Assembly: GCA_965246885.1 (NCBI GenBank)
Contig: OZ251992.1
Coordinates: 1,888,001 to 1,952,000 of the forward strand
DNA length: 64,000 bases
Direction of reading: 5' to 3'
Origin: Abditibacterium sp.
GTDB taxonomy: Bacteria; Armatimonadota; Abditibacteriia; Abditibacteriales; Abditibacteriaceae
The notes under the pieces are model-generated. The model was not told the origin of the DNA and did no database searches. It saw nothing but the letters and a program-made list of their open reading frames with translations. Shown here piece after piece: positions 46,615 to 61,990 of the stretch; position 1 is the first letter of the stretch, and each line of letters begins with the position of its first letter. Made by a program: the position numbers and the translations under genes.

Positions 46615-47784
46615 ATGAGATTCCTGCACACCGCCGACTGGCACCTCGGTTTGCGTTTGGGCGCACACGACCTCTGCGACGCGCAGTTCGCCCAAGTCGA
46701 GCGACTCGCGCAAGCGTGCGACGACCTCCAAGTAGATGTGCTCCTCGTAGCCGGTGATGTCTTCGAGAAGCGCACCGGCCTCGCGGCTCTGACCAAGCGC
46801 CTCGCCGCCATCCTCAAGCCGCGCATGGAGCGCGGGTTGCACGTCGTCCTCGCGTATGGCAACCACGACGACCGCGAGCATTTCCGCATGATGCGCGCGC
46901 TTTTGGACATCGAGAGCGACGCGGGCCGCTTGCGCGTGGTCGAAGCGCCCGCTAACTTCGAGCTTGGCGGCGTGCAGTGGGGCGTCGTGCCGTATCCCGA
47001 CCGCGACACCCTCGCCCAATTCGCCGCCGACCGGAGCGACACCCCGGACGGCGCGGGCCGCAACGAGACGCTCAGCCAAAGCTACGCTGCCATCGTGCGC
47101 GGCGTCGCGGAAGGCTTCCGGCCCGACGTCCCTGCCGTCTTCGTCGCGCATATTTCCGTTGCGGGTGTCCAAACCGCCTCCTCGTTGGAGCTATCCTACA
47201 ACCAAGACATTGTGCTCGGCCAAAGCGACTTGCCCGCCAACTGCTCGTATATCGCGCTCGGCCACATCCACCAAGCGCAGCGCGTGGGCGGTGCGGCGGC
47301 GGTGCCCTGTTATTACGCGGGCAACCTCGACCGCTTCAATCGCGGCGAGCGGCACGACCGGCAAAAGGGCGCGTGGCTGGTGGATATTCCCGCACACGGC
47401 CCCGCCCGCTCCGGCGTCGAGGTGCAGTGGCTCGATTTGCCCGTCACGCCGTTTCTCGACATCGCAATCGCCGCCGACGAGGTGGAGGAGTTGCCCGCGC
47501 GCTACCCCGACTTGGCGCGTGGCTTTGTGCACGTGACGCTCGATTGCACGGACACCCCCGACCCCATCAAAGCGCGGCGACGCGTGTATGAACTGTGCCC
47601 GCGCGTGTTGGACGTGGTGCTGACGGGCGACACACCGGCGCTTGCCGAAGAGACATGGGCGCCGCGCGACTGGCGCCAGACGGCGCTGGCGTTCGTTGAG
47701 GAGCGCTTCGCGGGGCGCGCGGACTTGGCCGACTTGCAAGAGAAGACGCGCGACCTGTTGGCGGAGGTGGAAGCATGCTCTTGA
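46615..47784 (+). CDS. sbcD: SbcD/Mre11 nuclease
   Basis: HTADWHLG, AGDVF, GNHD, YIALGHIH. Confidence 0.9.
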   Translation: MRFLHTADWHLGLRLGAHDLCDAQFAQVERLAQACDDLQVDVLLVAGDVFEKRTGLAALTKRLAAILKPRMERGLHVVLAYGNHDDREHFRMMRALLDIESDAGRLRVVEAPANFELGGVQWGVVPYPDRDTLAQFAADRSDTPDGAGRNETLSQSYAAIVRGVAEGFRPDVPAVFVAHISVAGVQTASSLELSYNQDIVLGQSDLPANCSYIALGHIHQAQRVGGAAAVPCYYAGNLDRFNRGERHDRQKGAWLVDIPAHGPARSGVEVQWLDLPVTPFLDIAIAADEVEELPARYPDLARGFVHVTLDCTDTPDPIKARRRVYELCPRVLDVVLTGDTPALAEETWAPRDWRQTALAFVEERFAGRADLADLQEKTRDLLAEVEACS

Positions 47785-50700
47785 ACCGCGTGAGTTTGCA
47801 AGGCTTCCTCGCCCACCGGGGAAGCGAAAGCGGCGGTAAGATGGCGCCCATTGAGGTGGACTTGCGCGCCTCCAACCTGTGGCTGATGCACGGCCCCAAC
47901 GGAAGCGGCAAAAGCGCGGTCTTCGACGCCATCACCTTCGCCCTGTTCGATGAGGCGCGCGGGAGCCGCTTTGGGCAACTGGTCAACGATCAATCCCAAT
48001 CCGCCCACGTCGAAGTCGAACTGGAAGTGGGCGGCGCCCGCTTTCTCGTGAAGCGCCACCTCAAGCTCAACCGCGCCCGTGACGCGCACACCCTGACAGG
48101 CGAGGTGTGGCGCTGGAACGAGGCCGCCGGAAGGTGGGAAGTCGAGGCGGGCGTTGGGAACAAGGTCAAAGAGTGGGCCGCGCGCACCTTGCAAATCTCC
48201 TACGCCAACTTCGTCTCCGCCGTCGTCTTGCGCCAAGGCGAGGCCGACCGCTTTCTGCTCGCCAAACCCCCGGAGCGCAAAGACCGGCTCATGGAACTGC
48301 TCGACCTCGACATCTACAAGCGGCTGGGAAGTGCCGCCAACGCGCGCCGCACCGCCTACGCCAACCTCGCCAAGGACAAGCAAAAGCGCCTCGACGCCTG
48401 TCCTGCCGTGAGCGAGGAAGAACTCGCGTTTGCCCGCACCGCCGCCGAAGATGCCGCGCGCGTCGCCGAGGAAACCCGCGTTGCCCACGAGCGCGCCCAA
48501 AGATTGCACGAGGCCGCCACTCTCGCGGCGTCATTGCGCGCACAAATTGCCGAGAAGGAGCGTTTGCGCGAGGAAGACGACGCCATCTTGCGTGACGAGA
48601 GCGCCATTGAGGAGGCCGCGCGCGAATCGCAAACCCTCGCCGCCGCGCTCCCCCTTTTGCGCGCCGTCGCCGGGGCACGGGGGCAACTCGCCGCCGCGCA
48701 GCAGAACCATGCCTGCGCCGAACGCACCTTGCACGCCGCCCAAGCGGACGCCGAGCGCTTGACGGCGCCCGTCGCCGCCGCGCAGGAAGAATACGCCGCA
48801 TCGCAAGCTGCATCTGAAGCGGCTCGGCAAGCCCTCGCTGCTGCGCGCGCCACCGCCGAGGGTGCCGCGCGCGACGCCGCCACGCTCGCTACCCTCGAAG
48901 TCTTGGAGCGGCAAATCACCGCCGCGCGCGAGCAACTCGTCCCTCACGAAACTATCCTGCGCGCCGCGCCAGTCATCGAAGCGCGCCGTGTCCGTTTGGC
49001 CGAGTTACGCGCGGCGGAAGCCAAAGTCCGCGCCGTCTGGGATGCCCGCGCCAAGGCTTATGCTTCCAACGATGCGTACATGAAGGCCGAGCGGCAACAC
49101 TTGGACGCTATCGGAGACGCGGACGCCAAAGCGCGCGCCGCCTTCGCCGCTCAAGCCGCATTGGAGCAAGCCGCCGCTCACGCTGAAGAGTTGGAGCGCC
49201 AGAAAATCGAAGTCGCAGCCGAACTGCGCTTTCAAAGCGACCTGTCGGCGCGGCGCCAAACGCTGGACAAGGCCGCCTTGTGCCCGACGTGCGGCACCCC
49301 GTTGGACGAAGCTGCCGTTGCCCCGCGCTTAGCCGAAGAGCGCGCACGGTTGGCAAGCGCCATTGGAGCCTTGCAAGAGCGCGCGGCGACTTTGGCCAGC
49401 GACTACAAGCGGGCGCTTGCCGCCAAAAAGCAGTGCGAAACCGCCTTCCAAAAGGCGAACCGTGCCGCTCAAACTGCCAACGAAGCCCTCGCGGGCGCGC
49501 TCGCCTCGTTGGGTGCCGCGCAGCAACTCGCCGCCGTCCGGCGCGCCGAGTTAGAAGAGCGTCGGCGGGAAGCCGGAGCGTTCGCCGACACCTCAGAGGA
49601 TGCCTTGGCCGCGCAAATGCAGGCGCTGAACGCTGAGGGTCTTGACGCTGACTTAGCGCGCTTGGCTGACGCGCGGCGCGTGCAACTGGAAAGCGAAGCC
49701 ACGACTCGCGCGTGCGGCGTGCAACTCCAAGGCTTGCCCGCTTGGGATGCCGCGCGCCGCGCGCACATCCGAGAAAGCGCCCAAGCGGGCGCTGCCTCCG
49801 TCGCGCGGGCCGAGGACGCAGTCGAAACGGCGCGCGTCGCCGAGGTTGCGGCGGGGGAGGCGGCAGTCGCGGCTTGGCGGGCGTCCGAAGCGGCCCAGTC
49901 CGCCGCGCAAGTTGCTGCCGGACTTTTAGAAGGCGCCATTCAATCCGAATGCGCCGCGCTCGAGGCGTTCGAGCGCGAAAGCGCGCGCTTGCCACCCGTT
50001 TGGGCCGCGCATCCCGCCGCGCGGGAGGATGGGGCGCTGCATGAGTTGGAAGCCCGCGCGCAATCGCTGCGCGACATGGGGGAACGACTCGCCCACTTAA
50101 ACCAAGCGCGCACGCGCATGGCGGAACTGACGGGCACGTTAAGTGCTTTGCTGGCGCAACTCCGCGAGTTGCCCGCCGACACGCCGGAGTCGGTCGCCGA
50201 TGCCGGTGAAGCGTTGGCGGGGGCCGTTCACCGTTCCGCCCATGCACGTGAAGCCGCAAACGAGGCCGCGTGGCGCCTGAGCGACTTGGAAACTGCGCGC
50301 CGTGCCTTCGAGACGGCGCGCGCGCAACGCGATGACGCGGCCACTCAAGCCGCGCGCTATGGCGACTTGGCGGGCGCCTTCGGACGCGACGGCTTGCAAG
50401 CCAAAATCGTCCAAGACGCACAGCACTCCCTCACCCGCCTCGCCAACGGCATCTTGGGCCGCTTGTCCAACGGCGAGTGGCAAATAGATTTGCGCGGCGA
50501 AACCGAGAACGAGTTGGAAATCATCGCCCGCGACGAAGCGCGCGGCGGGGTCGAGCGCACCTTTGACTGCTTAAGCGGCGGCGAGCGGTTTCGCGTCGCC
50601 ATCAGCGTCGCCATTGCCATCGGCCAAATGGCGTGCGGCGGCGCCCCGATGAATACCCTCGTCATAGACGAAGGCTTTGGCGCCCTCGACGAAACCAACC

Positions 50701-50867
50701 GCGCCCTCATGGTGGACAACCTGCGCCACCTGAGCGAGCACGAACTACGCGGCGGGCGCATCATCGTCGTTTCGCATCAAGACGACGTGTGCGACGCTTT
50801 CGGCCACCGCCTCCGCCTGTCGCGCGACGCGGGCGGCTACGCGCGCGTTGAAACCGTGCGCGAGTGA
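47775..50867 (+). CDS. sbcC: SbcC/Rad50 SMC ATPase
   Basis: GPNGSGKS, LRQGE, CPTC zinc hook, LSGGE, IDEGFGALD. Confidence 0.9.
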   Translation: MLLNRVSLQGFLAHRGSESGGKMAPIEVDLRASNLWLMHGPNGSGKSAVFDAITFALFDEARGSRFGQLVNDQSQSAHVEVELEVGGARFLVKRHLKLNRARDAHTLTGEVWRWNEAAGRWEVEAGVGNKVKEWAARTLQISYANFVSAVVLRQGEADRFLLAKPPERKDRLMELLDLDIYKRLGSAANARRTAYANLAKDKQKRLDACPAVSEEELAFARTAAEDAARVAEETRVAHERAQRLHEAATLAASLRAQIAEKERLREEDDAILRDESAIEEAARESQTLAAALPLLRAVAGARGQLAAAQQNHACAERTLHAAQADAERLTAPVAAAQEEYAASQAASEAARQALAAARATAEGAARDAATLATLEVLERQITAAREQLVPHETILRAAPVIEARRVRLAELRAAEAKVRAVWDARAKAYASNDAYMKAERQHLDAIGDADAKARAAFAAQAALEQAAAHAEELERQKIEVAAELRFQSDLSARRQTLDKAALCPTCGTPLDEAAVAPRLAEERARLASAIGALQERAATLASDYKRALAAKKQCETAFQKANRAAQTANEALAGALASLGAAQQLAAVRRAELEERRREAGAFADTSEDALAAQMQALNAEGLDADLARLADARRVQLESEATTRACGVQLQGLPAWDAARRAHIRESAQAGAASVARAEDAVETARVAEVAAGEAAVAAWRASEAAQSAAQVAAGLLEGAIQSECAALEAFERESARLPPVWAAHPAAREDGALHELEARAQSLRDMGERLAHLNQARTRMAELTGTLSALLAQLRELPADTPESVADAGEALAGAVHRSAHAREAANEAAWRLSDLETARRAFETARAQRDDAATQAARYGDLAGAFGRDGLQAKIVQDAQHSLTRLANGILGRLSNGEWQIDLRGETENELEIIARDEARGGVERTFDCLSGGERFRVAISVAIAIGQMACGGAPMNTLVIDEGFGALDETNRALMVDNLRHLSEHELRGGRIIVVSHQDDVCDAFGHRLRLSRDAGGYARVETVRE

Positions 50868-50936: not shown

Positions 50937-51437
50937 ATGGCCGAATCAACCACTTCCCCCGCGAAGAAAAGCAGCGCCGCCCAAACGATGCGCCGCGTGC
51001 AGCAACTGCACCTGATATTGGGCACCCTCTTCGCGCCGCTCATTCTCTTCTTCTCGCTGTCGGGCGCGCTGCAAACGCTCGGCTTGCACGAGCAAGAGAA
51101 AGCGGGTGGACACACGCCCGCGTGGATGGCGCAACTGGCGTCTGTTCACAAAAATCAGCAGTTATCGCGCGGCGAGGGACGCCCGCCCAAATCCGAAGGC
51201 GCGAGCGATGCGGCACCGAAGAAGAGTCCGTCCGCCGCCCTCAAGGATGAGGGGAATGGAGCGCGCGGCCCGTCGCCTTGGCCGCTCAAGTGGTTCGTGG
51301 TGCTGATGTCGATGGGCCTTGCCTTCACGACCGAATTGGGCGTATGGATGGCGTTCAAATACTCGAAGAACAAAGCGATGGTGTGGGCACTGTTGGCAGT
51401 CGGAACGCTATTGCCCCTCGTGCTCTTGTGGTTGTAG
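50937..51437 (+). CDS. PepSY-associated TM-like membrane protein
   Basis: LHLILGTLFAPLILFFSLSG, LASVHK, three TM segments. Confidence 0.6.
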   Translation: MAESTTSPAKKSSAAQTMRRVQQLHLILGTLFAPLILFFSLSGALQTLGLHEQEKAGGHTPAWMAQLASVHKNQQLSRGEGRPPKSEGASDAAPKKSPSAALKDEGNGARGPSPWPLKWFVVLMSMGLAFTTELGVWMAFKYSKNKAMVWALLAVGTLLPLVLLWL

Positions 51438-52751
51438 CGGGAAGGTGACCATCGCGCGCACGCTGTTCTCTATGGGAGTAAGCGCGACCGTCCACCCGTT
51501 CGTCGCGCAAATGGAGCGGCAGATCGCCAAGCCCAAGCCGTTGCCGCCAGTCGAGGAAACGCGCGCGAAGTCGGGTCGAAAGAATGGCTCGAACCACTCG
51601 TGCGGCACGGCGCCCTCTGGCAAATCGCAGTCGTTGTCTATCTGTAAAAGGGCTTCGGTGCGCGTCGAACCCAGTTCGACGCGCACGAGGGTGCCGGGTG
51701 TCGCGTATTTAGCGGCGTTCTCGATGAGGTTGCGCAGTAGCATTTCCACGTGCGCAGGCGGCGCATCGAGAGGGGTGTCGGACAGGGAACATTGAAGCGC
51801 AAGGCCCCGCGCCACAAAGGTGCCGCGCGCCCCATCGAGGGCGCGCTCGACCCAATGGGCAAGGTCGAGCGATTCATTGAGGGGCCGACTTTGGCGCATT
51901 TCCAAGGCGTTGAGTTGCAAGAGGTCGCGCACCAGCCCCGCGAGCCGCTCCGTTCCGACTTGGATGTGGGCGAGGGCTTGCTCGTGCTCCGCGATGGTTC
52001 GGGCGCGCGAGCGCGCCACGTCTATTTCGCCGAGCAGTATCTGAATGGGCGTGCGCAGTTCGTGCGAAGCCGCCGCATAAAAGCGCCCGCGCGCCGCCGC
52101 TTCGCGCTCCAAGCGGCCCAACAGGTCGTTGAGCGTGCCGGTCAAATGGCACATTTCGGCATCGCTCGAAGGCGATTGTAAACGCACTGGCGCGGTGTCG
52201 GTCGAGGCGTTCTGCGCTTGGGCTTGCGCCGCCAGTTTGTGAAGCGGGGAGAGCGTTTGGCCGACGACGAACCACGCGAGGAGCGCCGTCGCACCCACCA
52301 CGAGCGCGCCCAATTCCCACAACGCCCGCGCCCGCTCCCGCAGTTCGGCTTCAATGGGCGCCCATTCTCGCGCCACTACGAGCGTTTGCCTTCCGCTGGA
52401 AAGCGTGGCGGTGCTCCATTCGTCATCGCGGTCGGGCCAATCGGGAGCGTCGCGGCTCGATTGCCACAAGACACGGTTCTTCGCGTCCACGACCAACAGC
52501 GCTACACCCCCAACGGCCAGTTCCCCTTGGACAGCGCGGATGACGGCAACGAGCGGGCGGTGGAAGTGCGCTTCTTCGGCCACCTCGTCACGGGCGCGAC
52601 CGAGGGAGGTTTGCAGCGACTCCGCTACCCGCGCGAGGGCGCGTTGTCGCTCCTTTTGTTGAATGGCGCCTTCGCCCACGAGCAGGAGGAGCGCCACCAA
52701 CCCCGCGAAGAGAAGAGTCATGCGCGCGCGCATCGAGCGAAGGCCAGTCAC
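51408..52751 (-). CDS. Sensor histidine kinase (HAMP-HisKA-HATPase)
   Basis: ASHELRTP, NLIENAAKY, GNGLGLAI; start is 52751 or 52733. Confidence 0.9.
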   Translation of the reverse strand: MTGLRSMRARMTLLFAGLVALLLLVGEGAIQQKERQRALARVAESLQTSLGRARDEVAEEAHFHRPLVAVIRAVQGELAVGGVALLVVDAKNRVLWQSSRDAPDWPDRDDEWSTATLSSGRQTLVVAREWAPIEAELRERARALWELGALVVGATALLAWFVVGQTLSPLHKLAAQAQAQNASTDTAPVRLQSPSSDAEMCHLTGTLNDLLGRLEREAAARGRFYAAASHELRTPIQILLGEIDVARSRARTIAEHEQALAHIQVGTERLAGLVRDLLQLNALEMRQSRPLNESLDLAHWVERALDGARGTFVARGLALQCSLSDTPLDAPPAHVEMLLRNLIENAAKYATPGTLVRVELGSTRTEALLQIDNDCDLPEGAVPHEWFEPFFRPDFARVSSTGGNGLGLAICRSICATNGWTVALTPIENSVRAMVTFPLQPQEHEGQ

Positions 52752-53416
52752 TAATCCAGCCCCAAACGGTAGCCGACGCCGCGCGCGGTGTGAATAAGCG
52801 GCGAACGGCCCCGGTCTATTTTGGCGCGCAGATAGCCGATGTAGCAGTCGAGGACGTTGTCGTGCCCCGCGAAGTCGTACTGCCACACATGGTCTAAAAT
52901 GACGGCGCGCGCCATCGTTTGCCCCGCGTGCCGCATCAGATATTCGAGCAAGGAGTATTCTGTCGCCGACAGTTCGATGTTCTTCTCGCCGCGCCGCGCG
53001 CGCCGCGTGCCGGGATCGAGCGTGAGGTCGCCGACGGACAAGCACGTCGAGCCGGAGTGCCCGCGCCGCAGGAGCGCCCGCATCCGCGCCAGAATTTCGG
53101 CGACGCGAAATGGCTTGCACACGAAATCATCGGCGCCCGCGTCCAGCCCCTCGATCTTATCTTCAAGGGTGTCGCGCGCCGTGATAAGCAGAACGAGCGA
53201 GCGCACGCTCGCTTCGCGCAAGCGGCGGCAGACCTCGAAGCCGTTCATGCCGGGGAGCATCACGTCGAGCAGAATAAGGTCGAAGGGAGTTGCGCGCGCC
53301 AAGTGCAACGCGCGCAAGCCATCCGCCTCGACGCGCGGCGCATAGCCCGCCTCGCGGCATGCTTGTTCCAGAAAGCGCGACACGCCCGCTTCGTCTTCGA
53401 CGATCAAAACATTCAT
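52751..53416 (-). CDS. OmpR-family response regulator
   Basis: LIVEDE, LLDVMLP, GADDF, KPF, HTARGVGY. Confidence 0.93.
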   Translation of the reverse strand: MNVLIVEDEAGVSRFLEQACREAGYAPRVEADGLRALHLARATPFDLILLDVMLPGMNGFEVCRRLREASVRSLVLLITARDTLEDKIEGLDAGADDFVCKPFRVAEILARMRALLRRGHSGSTCLSVGDLTLDPGTRRARRGEKNIELSATEYSLLEYLMRHAGQTMARAVILDHVWQYDFAGHDNVLDCYIGYLRAKIDRGRSPLIHTARGVGYRLGLD

Positions 53417-53447
53417 GCCCAAAGTTTCCCCTCTTGCGCGCGGCGGG

Positions 53448-53810
53448 TCAGTTCTTTTTAGTGGTTGCGCGGTGGGTGTTCTTGGCACCAGCGGCGGCTT
53501 CCTGCTTTTTCTCGATGCCCTCTTTGGCAGCGCTGGTAGCTTCGATGTCCGCGATTTTGCCGGTGTAAGCGTCCACCATGACTTCGCGTAGCGTGCGGCC
53601 CGAACGCACCATCACGCCGTATTGCCATTTGCCTTCCTCGTTTTCCAAGGTAGTGCGGGCGACGAGTTTGCCGGGAAAGCGCTGAAGAACGACCGCGTTG
53701 GCGCGGGCAACGCCCACTTTAGCATGCGGCGCGGCGTGCGCGGCGGACAAAGCGACTCCTGCAACAGTTATAGCCGCCAATAGGCGGGCGAGTGTGGTTG
53801 ATGTTTTCAT
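53448..53810 (-). CDS. Secreted PepSY-domain protein
   Basis: Signal peptide; LENEEG.W.Y, EVMVDAYTGKI. Confidence 0.85.
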   Translation of the reverse strand: MKTSTTLARLLAAITVAGVALSAAHAAPHAKVGVARANAVVLQRFPGKLVARTTLENEEGKWQYGVMVRSGRTLREVMVDAYTGKIADIEATSAAKEGIEKKQEAAAGAKNTHRATTKKN

Positions 53811-53921
53811 GGTTATGTCGGTAAGGGCAAGTGTGCCCTTTCCCGCACCCCAGTTAACGCCGCGCCCTTGTGAGTACCCTGAGAGTCGTGATAGAAGTTT
53901 CTCAGAGAGATTGTTGCCCAC

Positions 53922-54881
53922 TCAATGTCCATGCCCGCAATTGTTCCCAGCGTGCGAGTGGGTGGTGAGGGCGCAAAAGAGGGCGACTTCTTCTCCCGAT
54001 GGGCACAAACCCTCGACGTCGGTTTGGATGGTGGCGTGGCCGATGCCGTGCTCGTTGTGGAGCAGGGTGGCAAGGGCGCTCACGATGGCGGCGCACTGTT
54101 CGAGCGTGAAGTCGGGGGGCAAGGCGACGTGGCACGACAGGAAGTTGAGGCCATCGCCTACCGTCCAGATATGCAGGTCGTGGACGCCGCGCACGCAGGG
54201 AATAGCTTGCATCGCGGCGACGAGGACGGGCACGTCCACGTTCTTGGGCGTGCTTTCCATGAGGATGTCCGTCGCGTCGCAGACAATTCCCCACGCCGTG
54301 TAGAGGATGAACGCTGCTATAAGCAGCGACACGAGCGGGTCGGCATACACCCAGCCGGTGAAATGCACGACGAGGCCCGCGACGACGACGGCAGCACTGG
54401 AAAGGGCGTCGCCCAGCATATGCACGAACGCCGCGCGCGAGTTGAGACTGTTTTTGGCGTCGCCGGACAGAGCGGCGGCAATGACGGTGTTCATCACGAC
54501 GGCAACGAGCGCTACCCCAATCATCAGGCTTCCGCTTACCGCTTCGGGATGAAGCCAGTGGGCGATGGCTTCGATGCCAATCCACGCGGACAGCGCAACT
54601 AAAGAGACTGCGTTAAACAGCGCCGTCAAGATGGCGACGCGGTGATAGCCGAAGGTGCGCGACCCCGTCGCCGGGCGCGCCGCGACCCCAATGGCGTAGG
54701 CCGCCAAGCCGAGCGCAAGGGCATCGGAGAGATTGTGTCCGGCGTCCGACAAGAGGGCGAGGGAGTGGGACACAACACCTGCAACCGCTTCGACGACGAC
54801 AAAAGCGAGGGTGACGCCGAGCGAAACCCACATCTTGCGCCCGCTCGTCGGGCCGTGAACGTGTCCTGCGTGACTTGACAT
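53922..54881 (-). CDS. czcD: Cation diffusion facilitator (CzcD-like)
   Basis: SLALLSDAGHNLSD, TFGYHR, HMLGD, HDLHIW, HATIQ. Confidence 0.9.
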   Translation of the reverse strand: MSSHAGHVHGPTSGRKMWVSLGVTLAFVVVEAVAGVVSHSLALLSDAGHNLSDALALGLAAYAIGVAARPATGSRTFGYHRVAILTALFNAVSLVALSAWIGIEAIAHWLHPEAVSGSLMIGVALVAVVMNTVIAAALSGDAKNSLNSRAAFVHMLGDALSSAAVVVAGLVVHFTGWVYADPLVSLLIAAFILYTAWGIVCDATDILMESTPKNVDVPVLVAAMQAIPCVRGVHDLHIWTVGDGLNFLSCHVALPPDFTLEQCAAIVSALATLLHNEHGIGHATIQTDVEGLCPSGEEVALFCALTTHSHAGNNCGHGH

Positions 54882-55169: not shown

Positions 55170-55928
55170 ATGTCTTTCTTCAACAAGCGCAGCAAAACGC
55201 TGCTCGGTGCCGGAGCGCTCGCTGTACTCGCGCTTTCCGTGGGCACCGCGCGCTACGCCAAAGGCTCCGACCATGCCGGAACCGTCGTCACCGCGCAAAC
55301 CCGCCCCGGAACGGACTTGTCCGATCTCCACATCTTCCCCAGCCCCACCAATCCCAACAACGTCGTTTTGGCGATGAGCGTCCACCCGCTCATTCCCGCC
55401 GGAACCGCTTCGGGCGCCGTGAGCTTCGACCCCGGCGTTTTGTATCAATTTAAGATAGACAACACCGGTGACAACATCGAAGACCTCGTCATCCAAGCGC
55501 GCTTCACGGGTTCGGGTGCGAGCCAACGGGTCTACATCGCTGGGCCAGTCAAGCCAACACGCACAGGAGTTATTACCCAAGCCGAGACGCCTTACGGGAC
55601 GACTGGCACCTTCGGCCAAGTGTTCTCACCAACCGCGAACGTTAAAGTTTTCGCCGGTATGCGCTCCGACCCGTTCTTCATTGACCTGTCGCAACTCTTC
55701 GCCATCTTGCCCGACCGCGCCGACCCGCTCAACGCGACTCCCAAGACCGACCCGGCCAAAGCGAATACCCCCCAAGTTCTGTCCTTTCGCCCACCGGGTC
55801 AAGCGCAGGACTTCCTCGCCAACTATAACGTCCTCGCAATCGTCGTCGAACTGCCCAAGTCGCAGCTAATCAGCGCTGGCACCGGCAAAATTCGCGTTTG
55901 GGAGACGACCAGCATCGCCAACAGCTAA
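55170..55928 (+). CDS. Secreted DUF4331-family protein (N-terminal half)
   Basis: Signal ending AKG then SDH; DLSDLHIF, YQFKIDNTGD, FAGMRSDPFFIDL, NVLAIVVELP. Confidence 0.8.
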   Translation: MSFFNKRSKTLLGAGALAVLALSVGTARYAKGSDHAGTVVTAQTRPGTDLSDLHIFPSPTNPNNVVLAMSVHPLIPAGTASGAVSFDPGVLYQFKIDNTGDNIEDLVIQARFTGSGASQRVYIAGPVKPTRTGVITQAETPYGTTGTFGQVFSPTANVKVFAGMRSDPFFIDLSQLFAILPDRADPLNATPKTDPAKANTPQVLSFRPPGQAQDFLANYNVLAIVVELPKSQLISAGTGKIRVWETTSIANS

Positions 55929-55948
55929 AAGCGACGCCAACACACATT

Positions 55949-56524
55949 ATGAAAAACCTTCTTGTTTTAAGCGCCGCTTGCGGAGCCTTGGCCGTTGCCC
56001 TCGCTGGTTGCGGTGGAGGTGGCAACAGCCCGATCATCAGTAGCCAAACATTTACCCAAACCGACCGCTTGGCGCGGCCCGTCGTCAACGAGGTCTTCGC
56101 CACGTTTGCTAATGGGCGTCATGACGTCAACGACAAAGACAACCCCACCGACGACTCTGGGCAACTCGCCAACGACATTCAAGGCTTCATGACCAGTCCG
56201 GCGGGCCGCTCGCCAGAAACGACCGCTGCGGTTAAATCTGTCCTTGTCCCCGACGTGATGATCGCCGATCTGTCGGTCAATAGTACCACTGCGGCTTATC
56301 TTGGCTCGGAGACTGGTGGTGTGACGGGTAGCAAATTTGGGGGCCGCGCGCTCACCGATGACGTGGTGGACACCTCTCTCGGCGTCATCTTCGGCCCGAC
56401 TATTTCCAAGTTGGGCTTGGCTCCCGACGACAAAAAAGAAATTCCCAACCTCACCACCGACAACGTCGGCCCCGGCGCCAAGAACTTCCAAACCAGCTTC
56501 CCCTACTTGGGCACGCCCAAATAA
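55949..56524 (+). CDS. DUF4331-family lipoprotein (C-terminal half)
   Basis: Lipobox LAGC; QTDRLARPVVNE, GGRALTDDVVD, FPYLGTP. Confidence 0.8.
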   Translation: MKNLLVLSAACGALAVALAGCGGGGNSPIISSQTFTQTDRLARPVVNEVFATFANGRHDVNDKDNPTDDSGQLANDIQGFMTSPAGRSPETTAAVKSVLVPDVMIADLSVNSTTAAYLGSETGGVTGSKFGGRALTDDVVDTSLGVIFGPTISKLGLAPDDKKEIPNLTTDNVGPGAKNFQTSFPYLGTPK

Positions 56525-56608
56525 ACTCCTGCGACTTGAGGTCAAGTCGCAGGAGTACAACGGGCGCGGGTGGAGTTTTTCCACCACCCGCGCCCGTTTT
56601 TCGTTGTC

Positions 56609-57997
56609 ATGAACTCGCGCCGTTTCTTTCCCATTCTCGCCGCCGCCTGCACCCTTGGGGGCGCGCTTGTGTGGGCCAAAGTTTCCGGTTCGTCGCTTCT
56701 GCTTCCGCCGCCACCCGCGCTCTCGACGGCCCGCGTCCGCGCCCCTTATGACCCCAGCGCCGTTCACAAGCTCCTCGAATTCGACGCGAAACAAGCCCGC
56801 TCCGACCCCGGCAACGCCATCTTTGGGGCGAATCTGGCCGCCCAATACCTCGAAAGCTACCGCGAAACGGGCGATGCCGCCGACGCTACTCGCGCCGAAG
56901 CCGCCGCGCGCGCCTCGCTCAAAATCCGCACGCACGGCAACAGCGCCGCCTTCTTCGTGCTCGCCCGCGCCCTCTTGACGCAGCACCGCTTCGCCGAAGC
57001 CCTCGTTGCCGCGCGCCGCGCGTCGTTGGGCGATCCGGTTGGACTGCGCCAGTGCGCCGACATCGAAATCGAACTGGGCGACTACGCCGCCGCCGCGCGC
57101 GACATCAACGCCTCGCAAAAGCTGGTCGAAGCCAGCGCGCACGAAGTCGCCCTCGCGCGTGGCGACGCGCGCTCCGCCAAGCCCGACGAAGACCCCGCCG
57201 TTCTGACGCTCGTCGCGCGACTCCGGGAGTTGCACGGCGACACTAAGGGGCAACTTACGCTTCTAACCCGCGCCGCCCAACTCGCGGACGCCGATGCCGA
57301 CTTGCCCGCCGCGACCGTCGCGTGGTTTCATGAGCGATTGGGGCGTTGCCTGTTCATGACGGGCCGCTTGGACGAAGCCCGCGTCCAGTATCGCGCCGGT
57401 CTCTCCGTCTTCCCGCGCGACTACCGCACGCTCGCCGCCCTCGCCCATCTTTGCGCCGCGCGCGGCGATTGGAAGGGCGCGCTCGATTGGGGACAAAAAG
57501 CCGCCAACATCGTGCCCGCTCCCGAAACCCTCGCCCTACTTGGCGATGCTCATGCCGCGCTTGGCCAAAGCGCGCAAGCGGCGGCGCAGTACAAACTCGT
57601 TGAGCAAATCGGTGCCCTCGGCCAAGCGCAGGGCATTCTCTACGACCGCCAGCGCGCGCTCTACTACGCCGATCACGACCGCAACCCCGCTCAGGCCGTC
57701 GCCTTGGCACGCGGCGAGTTGCGAGTGCGGCACGATATCTATGCCGATGACGCGCTCGCGTGGACGCTTTGCAAAGCCGGGCGCGCTGGGGAAGCCGCAC
57801 CTTTCGCTGCACGCGCCTTGAGGTTTGGAACGCGCGATGCTTCCCTGTTCTTCCACGCCGGAATGATTGCCGCCGCTCTGGGCGACAAGGCGCACGCCCG
57901 TCTAAACTTGACCTGCGCCCTCCAAGTCAACCCCTTTTTCCACCCGACGCAACCCGCGACGGCGCGCGCCGCGTTAGCGCATTTGGCGGCGTCTTGA
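56609..57997 (+). CDS. Exported tetratricopeptide-repeat protein
   Basis: N-terminal hydrophobic segment; helical repeats; HRFAEA, DIYADDALAW, FHAGMI, NPFF. Confidence 0.85.
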   Translation: MNSRRFFPILAAACTLGGALVWAKVSGSSLLLPPPPALSTARVRAPYDPSAVHKLLEFDAKQARSDPGNAIFGANLAAQYLESYRETGDAADATRAEAAARASLKIRTHGNSAAFFVLARALLTQHRFAEALVAARRASLGDPVGLRQCADIEIELGDYAAAARDINASQKLVEASAHEVALARGDARSAKPDEDPAVLTLVARLRELHGDTKGQLTLLTRAAQLADADADLPAATVAWFHERLGRCLFMTGRLDEARVQYRAGLSVFPRDYRTLAALAHLCAARGDWKGALDWGQKAANIVPAPETLALLGDAHAALGQSAQAAAQYKLVEQIGALGQAQGILYDRQRALYYADHDRNPAQAVALARGELRVRHDIYADDALAWTLCKAGRAGEAAPFAARALRFGTRDASLFFHAGMIAAALGDKAHARLNLTCALQVNPFFHPTQPATARAALAHLAAS

Positions 57998-58000
57998 CCC

Positions 58001-59470
58001 ATGAATTCGCTTCGCTTCTGGTGCTTTGTTTGGTTCGCAGGGGTGTGGGGAACGCTTGCCCGACCTGCGAGCGCGCACCCGATGGGCAACTTTTCCATCA
58101 ACCACTACGCGCGCTTTGGCGTCGGCGTCAGGGAAATCAAGCTCCGCTATATCCTCGATTTCGCCGAAATTCCCGCCGCCGAGCGCATGACCCGCCTCGA
58201 TGCCAACGGCGATGGGCGGGCGAGCGACGCGGAAAAAGCGGCGTTTTTAAAAACCGAAGCGCCCACCTTCTTGGGTGGGCTGAGCCTAAAAGTAAACGGG
58301 CAGGCCCTCGCCCTCGCGCTGCTCTCGTCCGATCTCGAAGTGCGTCCGGGCGCCGGTGGTTTGCCGACGTTGCGGGTTTGGATGGATGCGCGGGCGCCGC
58401 TTCCCTCTGCCTCAACGCTTCGCGTTGAGTATAATGACGCCAATTTCGAGGGGCGCACTGGCTGGATGGAGATTCTCGCCCTGCCCGAAAAGGGTTGTGC
58501 CGTGCGCGACTCGGACGCCGGCAGCGTTGACCGCAGTCGCGGCCTGACTGTCTTCCCGCTCGATGCGGGAACTGTTGCGCCCCGCCAAAGCAGTGCAGCT
58601 TTCACCGTTGTTCCTTCGGACGCGGCATCCGCTTCGGCGAGCGCCGCTCCTCCGCCGAGCGCCCCCACGAGCAACGATAACACCCCGCAAAACCGCTTCA
58701 CGCAAAGCATCGCTGAAGGTGAACTCACCCCGGCTTTGGTGGCGTGGGGCGTTCTGTTTGCGCTTGGGTTCGGCGCTGTCCATGCTCTCTCGCCGGGACA
58801 CGGCAAAACGATGGTTGCGGCGTATCTTGTCGGCACGCGCGGCACGCCGCGCCATGCGGTTTTGCTCGGTTTGGTCGTAACCATCACCCATACCCTCGGC
58901 GTCTTCGCGCTTGGGTTCGCGCTGTTGTTCGCGTCGCGCTCCATTCTGCCCGAAAAGCTCTTCCCCGCCTTGAGCGCCCTCAGTGGCATGCTGATTTTCG
59001 GCGTCGGTCTGTGGCTGTTCCTGTCGCGCTGGCAAGCGCTCACCGCGCCGGGGCACACCCACTCCCACGACGATCATACCCACGAAAATGGCGGACATAC
59101 CCACTCGCACGGCGGGCACATCCACTCCCACGCTGTCCCCGAAGGGCCACTGACGATGCGCAGCCTCGTGGCGTTGGGGATTTCAGGCGGCATCGTGCCG
59201 TGCCCCGAAGCCTTGGTCGTCCTGCTGGCCGCCGTGAAGCTGCACCGCATCGGCTATGGCATGGTGCTTATCTCCGCTTTTAGTTTGGGACTCGCGGCGG
59301 CGCTGGTGGCCATTGGACTACTTGTGGTGTCAGCGCGCGGGCGGTTGAGTCGCGTACGCGGCTTGGACGAGAACTCCGCCCTCGTGCGCTGGTTGCCCGT
59401 TGGGAGCGCCGCCATCATCACCCTCATTGGCGCCATCCTCACTCTCCGCGCTTCGATGGGCGCCTTTTAG
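58001..59470 (+). CDS. RcnA/NicO-type Ni/Co transporter with periplasmic N-terminal domain
   Basis: ASA|HPMGNFSINHY; HALSPGHGK, HTLGV, His-rich loop, GGIVPCPEAL. Confidence 0.85.
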   Translation: MNSLRFWCFVWFAGVWGTLARPASAHPMGNFSINHYARFGVGVREIKLRYILDFAEIPAAERMTRLDANGDGRASDAEKAAFLKTEAPTFLGGLSLKVNGQALALALLSSDLEVRPGAGGLPTLRVWMDARAPLPSASTLRVEYNDANFEGRTGWMEILALPEKGCAVRDSDAGSVDRSRGLTVFPLDAGTVAPRQSSAAFTVVPSDAASASASAAPPPSAPTSNDNTPQNRFTQSIAEGELTPALVAWGVLFALGFGAVHALSPGHGKTMVAAYLVGTRGTPRHAVLLGLVVTITHTLGVFALGFALLFASRSILPEKLFPALSALSGMLIFGVGLWLFLSRWQALTAPGHTHSHDDHTHENGGHTHSHGGHIHSHAVPEGPLTMRSLVALGISGGIVPCPEALVVLLAAVKLHRIGYGMVLISAFSLGLAAALVAIGLLVVSARGRLSRVRGLDENSALVRWLPVGSAAIITLIGAILTLRASMGAF

Positions 59471-59533
59471 AACAACAGCGTTGAGAAGAGGCTTAGTGGC
59501 CTCTCCCTTTCTCGCGCGTCCTTGGAGTCGCTC

Positions 59534-60274
59534 ATGAACCCCACCTTTCTCCTGCTGCTGCTCGGCGCGCTTGGTTTCGGCGTTGCCCACGCTTTTGAAC
59601 CCGACCATATGGCGGCGGTTTCCACCTTTGTCGCGGGGCGTCCCAAGCCGCGCGAAGCCGCGCTGTTTGGCGTGCGCTGGGCAATTGGACACGGGTTTTC
59701 GTTGTTCCTTATCGGATCACTCCTCTTTTTGTTCCGGCGCGCGGCGGAAAAAGCGCAACCCGCGCTGTTCGCGTCGGGCGTCTTAGACCGCTTCGTCGGA
59801 TTGGTGTTGGTGGGGTTGGGAGTGTGGACGCTGTGGCAAGTCGCTTCGAGCCGCGCCACTAAAGCGCACGCACACGGCCACTTTCATGATGGGCGCTTGC
59901 ACGCGCACGGCGACCACTCGCACGGCCCTGATGGGCACACCCACTCGCATCAGGGCGGCTTGGCTTCGCTGGGCATGGGCATCTTGCACGGCGCGGCAGG
60001 AACGGGCGCTTTCGTGGGTCAGTCCGTTGTTTCCCTATCGAGTTCTTACGCTTTCGTGTTCTTCTACACGCTGCTGTTTTCGGTCGGTGTGCTCTTGTCT
60101 ATGGCGGTGTATGCGGGCGCGCTCGGCGGCCTCATCACGACGTTTGAAAAGCGCGGTCAGCAGGCGCTCACCGCCGCGCGTGTGGTAACGGCGGTGCTGA
60201 CCTGCGCCATCGGCGCGTGCCTTGTGTCGGGCGTCGAACTTCCCGGCTTGCTCGATCACTTCGTTCATCAGTAA
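59534..60274 (+). CDS. UreH/HoxN-like nickel permease
   Basis: HAFEPDH, WAIGH, His-rich loop, GILHGAAG. Confidence 0.82.
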   Translation: MNPTFLLLLLGALGFGVAHAFEPDHMAAVSTFVAGRPKPREAALFGVRWAIGHGFSLFLIGSLLFLFRRAAEKAQPALFASGVLDRFVGLVLVGLGVWTLWQVASSRATKAHAHGHFHDGRLHAHGDHSHGPDGHTHSHQGGLASLGMGILHGAAGTGAFVGQSVVSLSSSYAFVFFYTLLFSVGVLLSMAVYAGALGGLITTFEKRGQQALTAARVVTAVLTCAIGACLVSGVELPGLLDHFVHQ

Positions 60275-60291
60275 ACTATGCCCATACCGAA

Positions 60292-60322
60292 CAACAGCCC
60301 CCTACTTCGTAGGGGGCTGTTG
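60292..60322. terminator. Hairpin between convergent genes
   Basis: CAACAGCCCCCTAC-TTC-GTAGGGGGCTGTTG. Confidence 0.75.
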
Positions 60323-60325
60323 GTG

Positions 60326-61240
60326 TTACTGCGGCGAATCGGGCAGTGGGCCGCGCACAACGTGGTCGGGGTATTGGTCGGCGCGTGCCGCGCTCCACCG
60401 AAGCCACTTGACGTGTCCGTCGAAATACAGGTAGTTCGAGCCGCCCATGTGCCTATCCCACTTAATCCAGCCCGTTTGGTGCGCCGCGTCGGTTCCCACA
60501 AGCGAGCCTTCACCCGGCCATGTGTCGTAGTCATCTTGAGCGACGGAGTCATTGGGCGGTGCATTGAAGGGCGTGGCCGGGTTGCTGAATGCTTCCGAGT
60601 TGCGTTCGGAGAACATAATGATGCGCGCGTCGGGGAAGCCCGCGACGGCAGCATCGGTGGCGAAGCCATGCAAAGGCGTGTTCTCCATCGCGTAGCGGCA
60701 TGACTTGTGGGTGAAAATCGAGTTCAGCAGGTAAGATTCGATGGTCAGCCTGTTGGTTTTTGCGAGCGCCTGTTCGCTGTTGGGCGGCAACGTGTCTGTT
60801 GTGGATTGAATGGCGCCGTTGTAGTCGAGGATATTGGTCGCCGCGTTTGCCGAACGCGGTGTTGGATCGGACGGACAGTACCCGATTTGGCGGCTTTTGA
60901 GATACGGCTGGAAAAAGATAATCCAAGGCTTCTCGGCCTGACTATTTCCCGCGCCCCCCCCCGTGCACGTATCATCGGCAGTGGCGGGCGGAGGAGGCAA
61001 AGTGGGAATTTGGGTGCCATCGTCGAGAACCCAGCCCTCGTGGTGGTGGAACAGTTGGCCATCGTTGTCTTGCAAATACTGGGCGGCGGCCAAGCCCAGT
61101 TGTTTCATGTTGCTCATGCAGGAAGCTTTGCGCGCATTTTCGCGCGCGCGGGCAAAAGCGGGGAACAAAATCGCGGCAAGAATGGCGATGATGGCGATAA
61201 CTACCAATAATTCCAGCAAAGTGAAAGCGTGTTTGCGCAT
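60326..61240 (-). CDS. Prepilin-type N-methylation / DUF1559 / H-X9-DG protein
   Basis: [59 protein letters not shown]. Confidence 0.92.
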
Positions 61241-61246
61241 GGTGTC

Positions 61247-61274
61247 GGATTACGAACCAAAGTAATCGTAACAC
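61247..61274 (-). promoter_or_regulatory. Putative NikR operator
   Basis: GTGTTA-N16-TAATCC imperfect 28-bp dyad, 6 nt before the prepilin ATG and just downstream of nikR. Confidence 0.55.
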
Positions 61275-61303
61275 ATCTCATGCCATGCGGGGGCGAACGT
61301 TTC

Positions 61304-61768
61304 TTATTCCTGAGCGGAGTTTGCATCGCTCTCTCCAATGACGGTAACTGTTAATCGCCCATGCTCTACACCCTTGGTTCCAATCAGCGCGTCGGACAGA
61401 AAGCGGATGCGGTGGGCGTCGCCGCGCACCACCAAGACTTCGAGGCAGTTGCCGCCGTCCAAGTGAACGTGCAATGTGGACACGATAAGGTCGGCGCAGT
61501 CGTGCTGCACGTCGGTAAGGGTGCGCTGTAGCTGCGGCTTGTGGTGGTCAAAGAGGAGGGTGATGGTTCCGGCGATGACCCCGCCGCTTTCCTTGTGATG
61601 CTCGACCAAGTGCGCGCGGATCATGTCCGCCAAGGCGAGCGAGCGGTTCGAGTAGCCCTTTTGCAGCACCATCGTATCGAGTTCGCGGGCCAAGGCCGCC
61701 GGAAGCGACACACTAAAACGCACTGCGCCTTCGTTGGGGATGCGGGAGTTGTGGTGGTGAGAAGCCAT
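61304..61768 (-). CDS. nikR: Nickel-responsive regulator NikR
   Basis: RFSVSL, GYSNRS, FDHH, LHVHLD..NCLEV, KGVEHGRL. Confidence 0.93.
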   Translation of the reverse strand: MASHHHNSRIPNEGAVRFSVSLPAALARELDTMVLQKGYSNRSLALADMIRAHLVEHHKESGGVIAGTITLLFDHHKPQLQRTLTDVQHDCADLIVSTLHVHLDGGNCLEVLVVRGDAHRIRFLSDALIGTKGVEHGRLTVTVIGESDANSAQE

Positions 61769-61817: not shown

Positions 61818-61990
61818 GCGCCATTCATCGGCGCGGCCCGGTGAACGGTTGGCGCGACCGCGCCATTCGTTGGCGTGACCGCGCCATTCGTTGGCGCGGC
61901 CCGGTAAACGGTTGGCGTGACCGCGCCATTCGTTGGCGCGGCCCGGTAAACGGTTGGCGTGACCGCGCCATTGACTGGCGCGGCCCGGTG
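61818..61990. repeat. 21-bp-period tandem array of two unit types
   Basis: GCGCCATTCGTTGGCGCGGCC and CGGTAAACGGTTGGCGTGACC, 8 units in total. Confidence 0.9.

Follow-up and report, generated by a model that had tools for sequence, protein, structure and literature searches.

In the 64,000-nucleotide (nt) window that we analyzed (Abditibacterium sp., contig OZ251992.1, positions 1,888,001 to 1,952,000), a locus of seven genes, here called A to F and nikR (Table 1), joins two themes: a module built around the protein family DUF4331, and a prepilin-like protein putatively controlled by the nickel-responsive regulator NikR. Judged from its sequence, and with moderate confidence, we read the locus as an envelope module for the capture and uptake of nickel. 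Signal peptidase would free the N-terminal tips of A and of the permease D, and A would assemble with the lipoprotein B into one membrane-tethered DUF4331 protein, present in excess owing to the stem-loop after B. The DUF4331 protein may take up Ni(II) or Cu(II) on the Ser-Asp-His tip left by processing, be docked near D by the TPR protein C, and hand the ion to the anglerase-fold domain of D, which carries an invariant histidine (His1) after the signal peptide, and from there to the membrane permease. D, aided by the optional second permease E or by a NiCoT, would then move the ion inward to the Lar (nickel-pincer) pathway. Under plentiful nickel, NikR would turn off F (in some relatives also the operon of DUF4331); F itself might sit on a structure of pilus or secretion type and add to the capture, in other words be a NikR-controlled accessory. 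The capture idea is supported by the predicted metal tips on A and D and by NikR-type boxes before DUF4331 in four relatives.

We found DUF4331 in 38 of 201 Armatimonadota genomes. At these 38 phylum loci a TPR gene follows DUF4331 in 37; a D-type permease is present in 21 and a HupE/UreJ-2 protein in 8, with neither seen in 9 (some of these loci are truncated), and E occurs in 7, always after D. A second set comprised 80 loci from GTDB genomes (Armatimonadota, Cyanobacteria, Gemmatimonadota, Eremiobacterota, Planctomycetota and others), of which 22 with less than 5 kb downstream were excluded; among the remaining 58, a TPR gene is found in 53 and any permease in 40 (D in 28, HupE/UreJ-2 in 12). 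The two sets possibly overlap and were counted apart. All told, at least 528 DUF4331 stretches were confirmed in GTDB genomes, with both split and fused forms of the family. The order DUF4331-TPR-permease is also found on plasmids of Streptomycetaceae, Marinobacter, Lichenicola and Comamonadaceae: among the 10 plasmid loci inspected out of 33 matches, 2 from Streptomycetaceae combine TPR with a “nickel transporter”, 3 proteobacterial ones carry HupE/UreJ, and 5 are without a permease. The recurrence of this order in relatives indicates that the genes are grouped beyond chance. The original prediction had staked its case in advance on the co-occurrence of DUF4331 and TPR genes with nickel permeases, and they do co-occur, with permeases of the NicO superfamily or of HupE/UreJ-2, across many phyla. 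D and HupE/UreJ-2 proteins never share a locus in the 38-locus or the 58-locus set, and this mutual exclusivity suggests that they fill the same slot. Indeed, the HupE/UreJ-2 proteins that replace D in many DUF4331 operons carry the same His1 tip.

Of the five permease-less plasmid loci, one lies after a pair of extracytoplasmic function (ECF) sigma and anti-sigma factor genes, and two adjoin type II secretion genes. In the latter two (L048 and L050, on Sulfitobacter and Paracoccus plasmids), the DUF4331 gene has neither TPR nor permease beside it and is flanked by an A24 prepilin peptidase gene on one side and the type II secretion genes on the other, which hints at secretion of some DUF4331 proteins or at a tie to pilin-type machines.

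A and B are two parts of one family: A matches positions 1-240 of PF14224 (E 3e-33, 116.1 bits) and B matches positions 251-421 (E 1e-14, 55.2 bits), against a Pfam gathering cut-off of 27. B has the lipobox LAG-C21, whose cysteine is conserved in at least 90% of 19 relatives. In A, the residues Ser33-Asp34-His35 (55266-55274, + strand) follow Ala-Lys-Gly and form the predicted mature N-terminus, an Xaa-Xaa-His sequence of the type known as the amino-terminal copper and nickel (ATCUN) motif, which an excerpt of PMC12509749 gives as NH2-X-X-His, binding Cu and Ni. This SDH tip is invariant in 27 of 27 aligned proteins. More broadly, the pattern xxH was found in all 137 DUF4331 homologues that could be anchored (SDH in 131, ADH in 5, SSH in 1), after 4 of the 141 stored proteins had been dropped as unanchored (two truncated, two SSH by eye). 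When the -3/-1 small-residue rule for signal-peptide cleavage is applied to the same 137, a cut before xxH fits 136, a cut before Asp 102, and a cut before His just 1. The tip is present at 10/10 plasmid loci and at 37/38 phylum loci, and in each of the nine in-frame NiCoT-DUF4331 fusions SDH still comes after an internal signal peptide, which fits the need for a free N-terminus. The Xaa-Xaa-His tip of DUF4331 is a predicted Cu/Ni site.

Two variations on the family deserve mention beside this. Tip-less DUF4331 proteins (L065:9906-11237 and four proteins of the GTDB set) have Ala-Asp-Ala or Phe-Asp-Ile/Phe-Asp-Phe at this position and could serve as natural controls for the tip hypothesis; L065 also is without TPR and permease neighbors. 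In P0121 and P0123, a PEP-CTERM-like domain (by eye) is fused ahead of the signal peptide of an entire A+B DUF4331 protein.

Modeled by itself and with the signal peptide included, A came out as an Ig-like beta-sandwich with a predicted local distance difference test (pLDDT) value of 79.3, falling to about 46 in the tip region. Foldseek returned no match to this model at E ≤0.001, and a profile of A had no match at E ≤1 among the sequences of solved structures. By VIA, the best match had a Z of 6.3 and stood among generic Ig-like domains; the matches to 1ulv (Z 5.7), 2ivf_C (Z 5.2) and 4zel (Z 5.0), which we take to be DOMON-type domains, lie amid many Ig-like rows of equal Z, and A was assigned to no fold family. 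At the RNA level, the stem-loop after B has a folding energy of -31.2 kcal/mol (z -4.7), and of 33 other loci, 19 have a stem-loop with z ≤ -2 where DUF4331 ends, versus 1/12 after A and 2/13 after TPR, a comparison that is indicative only, being based on mononucleotide shuffles and on unmatched, mostly coding controls. Such a stem-loop suggests that the cell likely makes more DUF4331 than TPR protein and permease, which fits an abundant capture protein and an abundant client alike.

The permease D consists of a signal peptide, the His1 domain, and a six-helix RcnA-like membrane domain with a His-rich loop. In Pfam it exceeds the cut-off for NicO (PF03824, 43.2 bits) and also matches DsbD_2; its best NCBIfam match is RcnA (PRK10019), at 113.8 bits below the cut-off of 195. 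His1 follows Ala-Ser-Ala in D and is invariant in 20/20 proteins, with x-x-Ala preceding it in 22/22, the cleavage itself being predicted. The outer domain was modeled with a pLDDT of 88.1, and its top match is the anglerase Ang-1 (9GCE), both in Foldseek (E 3.5e-5) and in VIA-align (Z 9.6, root-mean-square deviation 3.8, 142 aligned residues; next best Z 7.2, among 48,161 chains). An excerpt of PMC12537917 gives Ang-1 affinities of 74 nM for Cu and 220 nM for Ni, and proposes it as a feeder of HupE/UreJ-2 permeases. By Pfam, D has no match to PF13795 (HupE/UreJ-2) at E 0.01; D would work like an anglerase-permease but falls outside that class by its permease family. Against the sequences of solved structures, the outer domain had only weak EF-hand-like matches (the HupE/UreJ-2 protein of L028 had none), and in the ESM Atlas it fell in clusters without names, with a recognition of 2127, below the 2300 mark.

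Both permease motifs named in the original prediction are borne out: HALSPGHGK in D (residues 261-269), of which HAL-PGHGK is invariant in 18/18, 17 of them with the His-rich loop; and HAFEPDH (H-X4-DH) in E (residues 19-25), which has its own His-rich loop near residues 112-140. E scores 23.2 bits against NicO, below the cut-off of 27.7, while true NiCoTs score 318-349 bits, and has five helices by hydropathy, compared with the eight of a true NiCoT. We presume E to be UreH-like from its motif; no UreH-specific model matched among the profiles searched. D and E are the sole NicO matches in this genome. At the GTDB loci with a NiCoT, it accompanies D in 10 of 10. Between DUF4331 and the permeases, C matches Pfam TPR repeats and has an N-terminal hydrophobic stretch that, by hydropathy, is a signal or an anchor; two DUF4331-TPR fusions were found, one of them apparently created by a frame error. 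C also has the invariant residues His126, Trp239, Asp381, Trp385 and His416 (24 aligned relatives), which exceeds the needs of a plain scaffold.

The regulator belongs to the NikR family (PF08753 and PRK04460, both over cut-off; for PRK04460, 151.7 versus 105) and is a single-copy gene in this genome. Its putative operator upstream of F differs by 2 mismatches from the published consensus of delta-proteobacterial NikR, GTGTTAC-N13/14-GTAACAC (PMC545781, in excerpt). It is the only site on the chromosome with a 14-nt spacer and at most 2 mismatches; as background, 4 of 6448 windows reach this level with spacers of 13-15. In relatives, a box lies upstream of F with 1 mismatch (G003, G105), 2 (G072, G199) or 3 (G010). 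Boxes with at most 2 mismatches also precede DUF4331 itself at 4 of 16 loci in genomes with NikR (G004, G009, G011, G105), compared with 0 of 20 in genomes without it, a count that leaves out L065 (no tip) and L033 (NikR status not established). At all four boxed loci the upstream gene is co-oriented, which places the site in the promoter region of DUF4331, and in G105 the box lies at most about 75 nt from the DUF4331 start, a position of repression. An alignment of the 300-nt upstream regions gave no motif common to all 16; in these regions the box was spotted by eye and afterwards compared with the published consensus. A site before nikM in G009 keeps the core TTAC-N14-GTAA with 4 mismatches to the 14-base consensus, and is a weak lead.

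Two observations on regulation and its surroundings concern relatives only. In G012 (L029:13910-19651), nikR, a NikR-type box, a TonB-dependent receptor gene, and ExbB/ExbD-like and TonB genes converge on the DUF4331 operon; the TonB receptor, in the place of F, is a candidate outer-membrane nickel receptor. In family f31, where NikR occurs in 1 of 12 genomes, a small protein of 112-141 amino acids without a Pfam match (Table 1) has a conserved W-I-x-H-E-L-x-H and, by eye, a ribbon-helix-helix-like C-terminal half, and its gene is divergent from F or NiCoT/D genes. It is a candidate for an alternative nickel regulator.

A cytoplasmic destination for nickel is available in this genome. Lar uses a nickel-pincer cofactor, and the presence of larA (2 matches), larB, larC and larE indicates that a cytoplasmic nickel client exists here. 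No NiFe hydrogenase, urease, nickel superoxide dismutase (Ni-SOD) or acireductone dioxygenase (ARD) was found in the genome (92.7% complete; the Ni-SOD search had no positive control), and these four were rejected as its client; no NikM/CbiM was found in it either. The original prediction had named no client other than, possibly, the DUF4331 complex. For this genome the lar genes now partly fill that gap, and DUF4331 as client stays a rival in view of the wider set of carriers. Among all 38 carriers, 11 have strong urease matches, 4 have hydrogenase-family matches over cut-off, and none has Ni-SOD in the same control-less search. Ten carriers have neither LarC nor NikR; LarA was found in 4 of them, a sub-cut-off match in 1, and none of the tested enzymes in 5.

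Several results weigh against capture and uptake. The chief one against simple uptake is the last: G064, G075, G088, G118 and G142, at 94-99% completeness, had no LarA, LarC, NiFe hydrogenase, urease, Ni-SOD or ARD in our searches, of which the one for Ni-SOD had no positive control. Across the phylum, DUF4331 is not enriched with LarC (28/38 carriers versus 159/201 genomes) or with NikR (16/38 versus 117/201), and given this lack of enrichment we rejected co-occurrence with either as family-wide evidence. The tip histidine is absent in L065 and four GTDB-locus proteins, no permease is present at 18/58 GTDB loci and several plasmid loci, and elsewhere the operon adjoins genes for ECF sigma factors. 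The membrane domain of D scores best against the exporter RcnA, and anglerases bind Cu more tightly than Ni (PMC12537917, in excerpt). As to control, nikR is near the operon at only 2 of the 16 loci in NikR genomes, and 12 of these 16 have no box before DUF4331; three of the four boxed loci come from one genus, with the box about 200 nt upstream of the start, and at this distance position does not give the sign of control. In the present genome no NikR box precedes gene A, where the best match has 4 mismatches. The box of this window lies before F instead. The proposal that the exported proteins carry nickel to the permeases is upheld in part: the predicted tips and the boxes in four relatives speak for it, but the missing box before A does not.

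The alternative that survives best, which we regard as possible but rather unlikely, makes DUF4331 (A and B) itself the nickel or copper client: E or a NiCoT would import the ion, D would export it, His1 would load it onto the tip, and the TPR protein would act as a maturation scaffold. The five carriers named above keep the module without any tested nickel enzyme, D resembles the exporter RcnA, and an importer-type second permease is found only with the D type (those 10/10 GTDB loci for NiCoT, 7/7 for E), while G009 has nikMQO besides. The stem-loops after DUF4331 fit an abundant product with minor maturation factors, DUF4331 has many invariant Asp, Arg and His residues beyond the tip, and for cable bacteria a supply of periplasmic nickel by RcnA has been proposed (PMC11247825, in excerpt). 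However, NikR normally represses at plentiful nickel, which fits uptake, as does the repression position of the box in G105; HupE/UreJ-2 anglerases, which are proposed importers, occupy the slot of D; no catalytic fold was recognized for A by Foldseek or VIA; and the five genomes might hold other nickel clients, for example glyoxalase I or quercetinase. A bolder form of the idea, about as probable, is that DUF4331 may be a new class of exported nickel (or copper) metalloprotein with its site at the tip made by signal peptidase, served by an import-export-load chain of TPR protein, D, importer and nickel-controlled pilin, and would be the client in genomes without a known nickel enzyme.

The prepilin-like protein F bears on a further alternative, compatible with the other readings and to our minds unlikely: that nikR and F are an independent unit, adjacent by chance, and that the operon is without nickel control here. 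Apart from the missing box before A, pairs of nikR and F lie apart from DUF4331 in G010, G072, G098, G139 and G156, and this genome has 59 prepilin-type matches. F matches PF07963 (N_methyl), PF07596 (DUF1559), TIGR02532 and TIGR04294 (H-X9-DG), all over cut-off; in the ESM Atlas it falls in generic DUF1559 clusters. We considered F as a random paralogue and rejected this, given that F is 44-64% identical to operon-linked orthologues versus less than 30%, over long alignments, to its own paralogues. Its clade has one copy each in 27/201 genomes, and a nickel-related neighbor or box was seen in 20 of the 27 and in none of the other 7: members are nikR-adjacent in 7, in or beside a DUF4331 operon in 9, preceded by a box of at most 2 mismatches in 5, beside a NiCoT in 3, and upstream of larE/larB-like genes in 1. 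Against chance adjacency, members of the clade sit within or next to the DUF4331 operon at 7/38 other loci, co-oriented in 6 and from several families, and in G096 it follows TPR and HupE/UreJ-2; DUF4331 is carried by 18/27 genomes with the clade versus 38/201 overall, although kin are not independent in this comparison. An HHHE motif is found in 15 of 18 members checked. As the original prediction had proposed, the prepilin belongs with the nickel theme, in that F is a recurring partner from a single-copy clade with nickel links.

Least probable, and quite unlikely in our judgment, is that the module handles copper or cobalt, or detoxifies them, when the envelope is stressed or during oxidative stress, with tips that sequester Cu/Co/Ni, an RcnA-like permease that exports, and nickel control as a local matter in some Armatimonadota: ATCUN-type tips bind Cu as well as Ni (PMC12509749) and anglerases prefer Cu (PMC12537917, both in excerpt), ECF sigma genes adjoin 9/80 GTDB loci and a Pseudoalteromonas locus, DUF4331 is named near ECF18s13 and ECF214s1 (PMC7826278, part of the supplement), and a metal exporter and heavy-metal two-component system are divergent from A, but the NikR-type boxes, the true NiCoT importers (at the bit scores given above) and the NiCoT fusions point to nickel supply, and the exporter and its PepSY neighbors were not found beside the operons of relatives.

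All seven genes were present at the coordinates first assigned to them, with five co-oriented genes facing nikR and the DUF1559 prepilin (Table 1). Within A-E the genes are separated by 20, 84, 3 and 63 nt; the facing genes E and F are 51 nt apart, and F is 63 nt from nikR. Among named homologues, those closest to A come from Abditibacterium, Capsulimonas and Chthonomonadaceae.

Table 1. Coordinates of the genes and sites discussed (positions in the window, except for the last row, which refers to loci of other genomes; aa, amino acids)
Feature	Coordinates	Strand	Description
Gene A	55170-55928	+	252 aa; exported N-terminal half of DUF4331
Gene B	55949-56524	+	191 aa; lipoprotein, C-terminal part of DUF4331
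Stem-loop	56525-56556	+	perfect 14-bp stem directly 3' of B
Gene C	56609-57997	+	462 aa; TPR protein
Gene D	58001-59470	+	489 aa; His1 outer domain and RcnA-like (NicO family) membrane domain
Gene E	59534-60274	+	246 aa; second, optional permease, HAFEPDH
Gene F	60326-61240	-	304 aa; DUF1559/H-X9-DG prepilin-like
NikR-type operator	61247-61274	-	GTGTTAC-N14-GTAATCC, just upstream of F
nikR	61304-61768	-	154 aa; nickel-responsive regulator
Small f31 protein	L081:6844-7191, L083:1839-2189, L084:6546-6968, L085:5146-5481, L088:6762-7115		

Divergent from A lies a metal-related block (50937-54881) with a ZitB-like cation diffusion facilitator (CDF) exporter gene (53922-54881), a gene for a PepSY protein, a PepSY-TM-like gene, and genes for a heavy-metal-type response regulator and a histidine kinase. 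This CDF/two-component block was considered as part of the module and rejected, given that CDF and PepSY genes are not found beside the relatives' operons. Further out, an open reading frame of 1030 aa (47775-50867) encodes, by inspection, an SMC/SbcC-like coiled-coil ATPase, and on the other side imperfect GC-rich tandem repeats (about 61820-61985) separate nikR from a divergent ATP-binding cassette (ABC) transporter gene.

If the module works as proposed, it gives a concrete, testable job to DUF4331, to the TPR protein that accompanies it, and to one clade within DUF1559, a very large prepilin family, with single-residue test points in His35 of A, His26 of D and the His triplet of F, and a single-site one in the NikR box. 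It would also extend anglerases to a second permease family, one that is usually read as an exporter, and so bears on the direction of transport in the NicO family. Should DUF4331 instead be the protein that is loaded, it would be a new class of extracytoplasmic nickel protein, added to a short list of nickel clients. In the literature searched, we found no main-text mention of DUF4331 and no counterpart of the DUF4331-TPR core, although subscription papers and supplements other than that of PMC7826278 may name the family.

Parts of the system resemble known ones. The closest likeness of D is to the Ang-1/Ang-2-HupE/UreJ-2 proteins (PMC12537917, in excerpt; 9GCE), with which it shares a signal peptide followed by an invariant His1, the fusion to a permease, and the anglerase fold, a beta-sandwich with a helical insert after strand 2; it differs in its NicO/RcnA-like membrane domain, and its outer domain is 13-18% identical to Ang-1 in structural alignments. 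No partner of the DUF4331, TPR, NikR or prepilin kind is mentioned in section 8 of that paper. With the RcnA of E. coli and of cable bacteria (PMC11247825, in excerpt), D shares a central His-rich loop and HALxPGHxK after the first helix, but it scores below the PRK10019 cut-off and has the extra exported His1 domain. We take HALxPGHxK to be the reference motif of E. coli RcnA. E is like the UreH/SodT and NiCoT importers (as covered in part of PMC4284471) in its H-X4-DH motif and its His-rich loop between helices III and IV. It differs from them in being below the NicO cut-off, having five helices, and being adjoined by no urease, hydrogenase or Ni-SOD gene; true NiCoTs take the same optional slot as E or are fused to DUF4331. 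On the side of the predicted metal site, the DUF4331 proteins compare with ATCUN sites, their predicted mature N-termini being Ser-Asp-His, Ser-Ser-His or Ala-Asp-His; the difference is that here signal peptidase would create the motif, on a bacterial exported family for which binding is predicted. On the side of control, the locus resembles the NikR-repressed nik(MN)QO operons (PMC545781, in excerpt) in having the same operator consensus, an adjacent nikR, and transport genes downstream, but what NikR would target here is a prepilin-like gene and, among relatives, the DUF4331-TPR-anglerase permease genes, rather than an importer of the energy-coupling-factor or ABC type.

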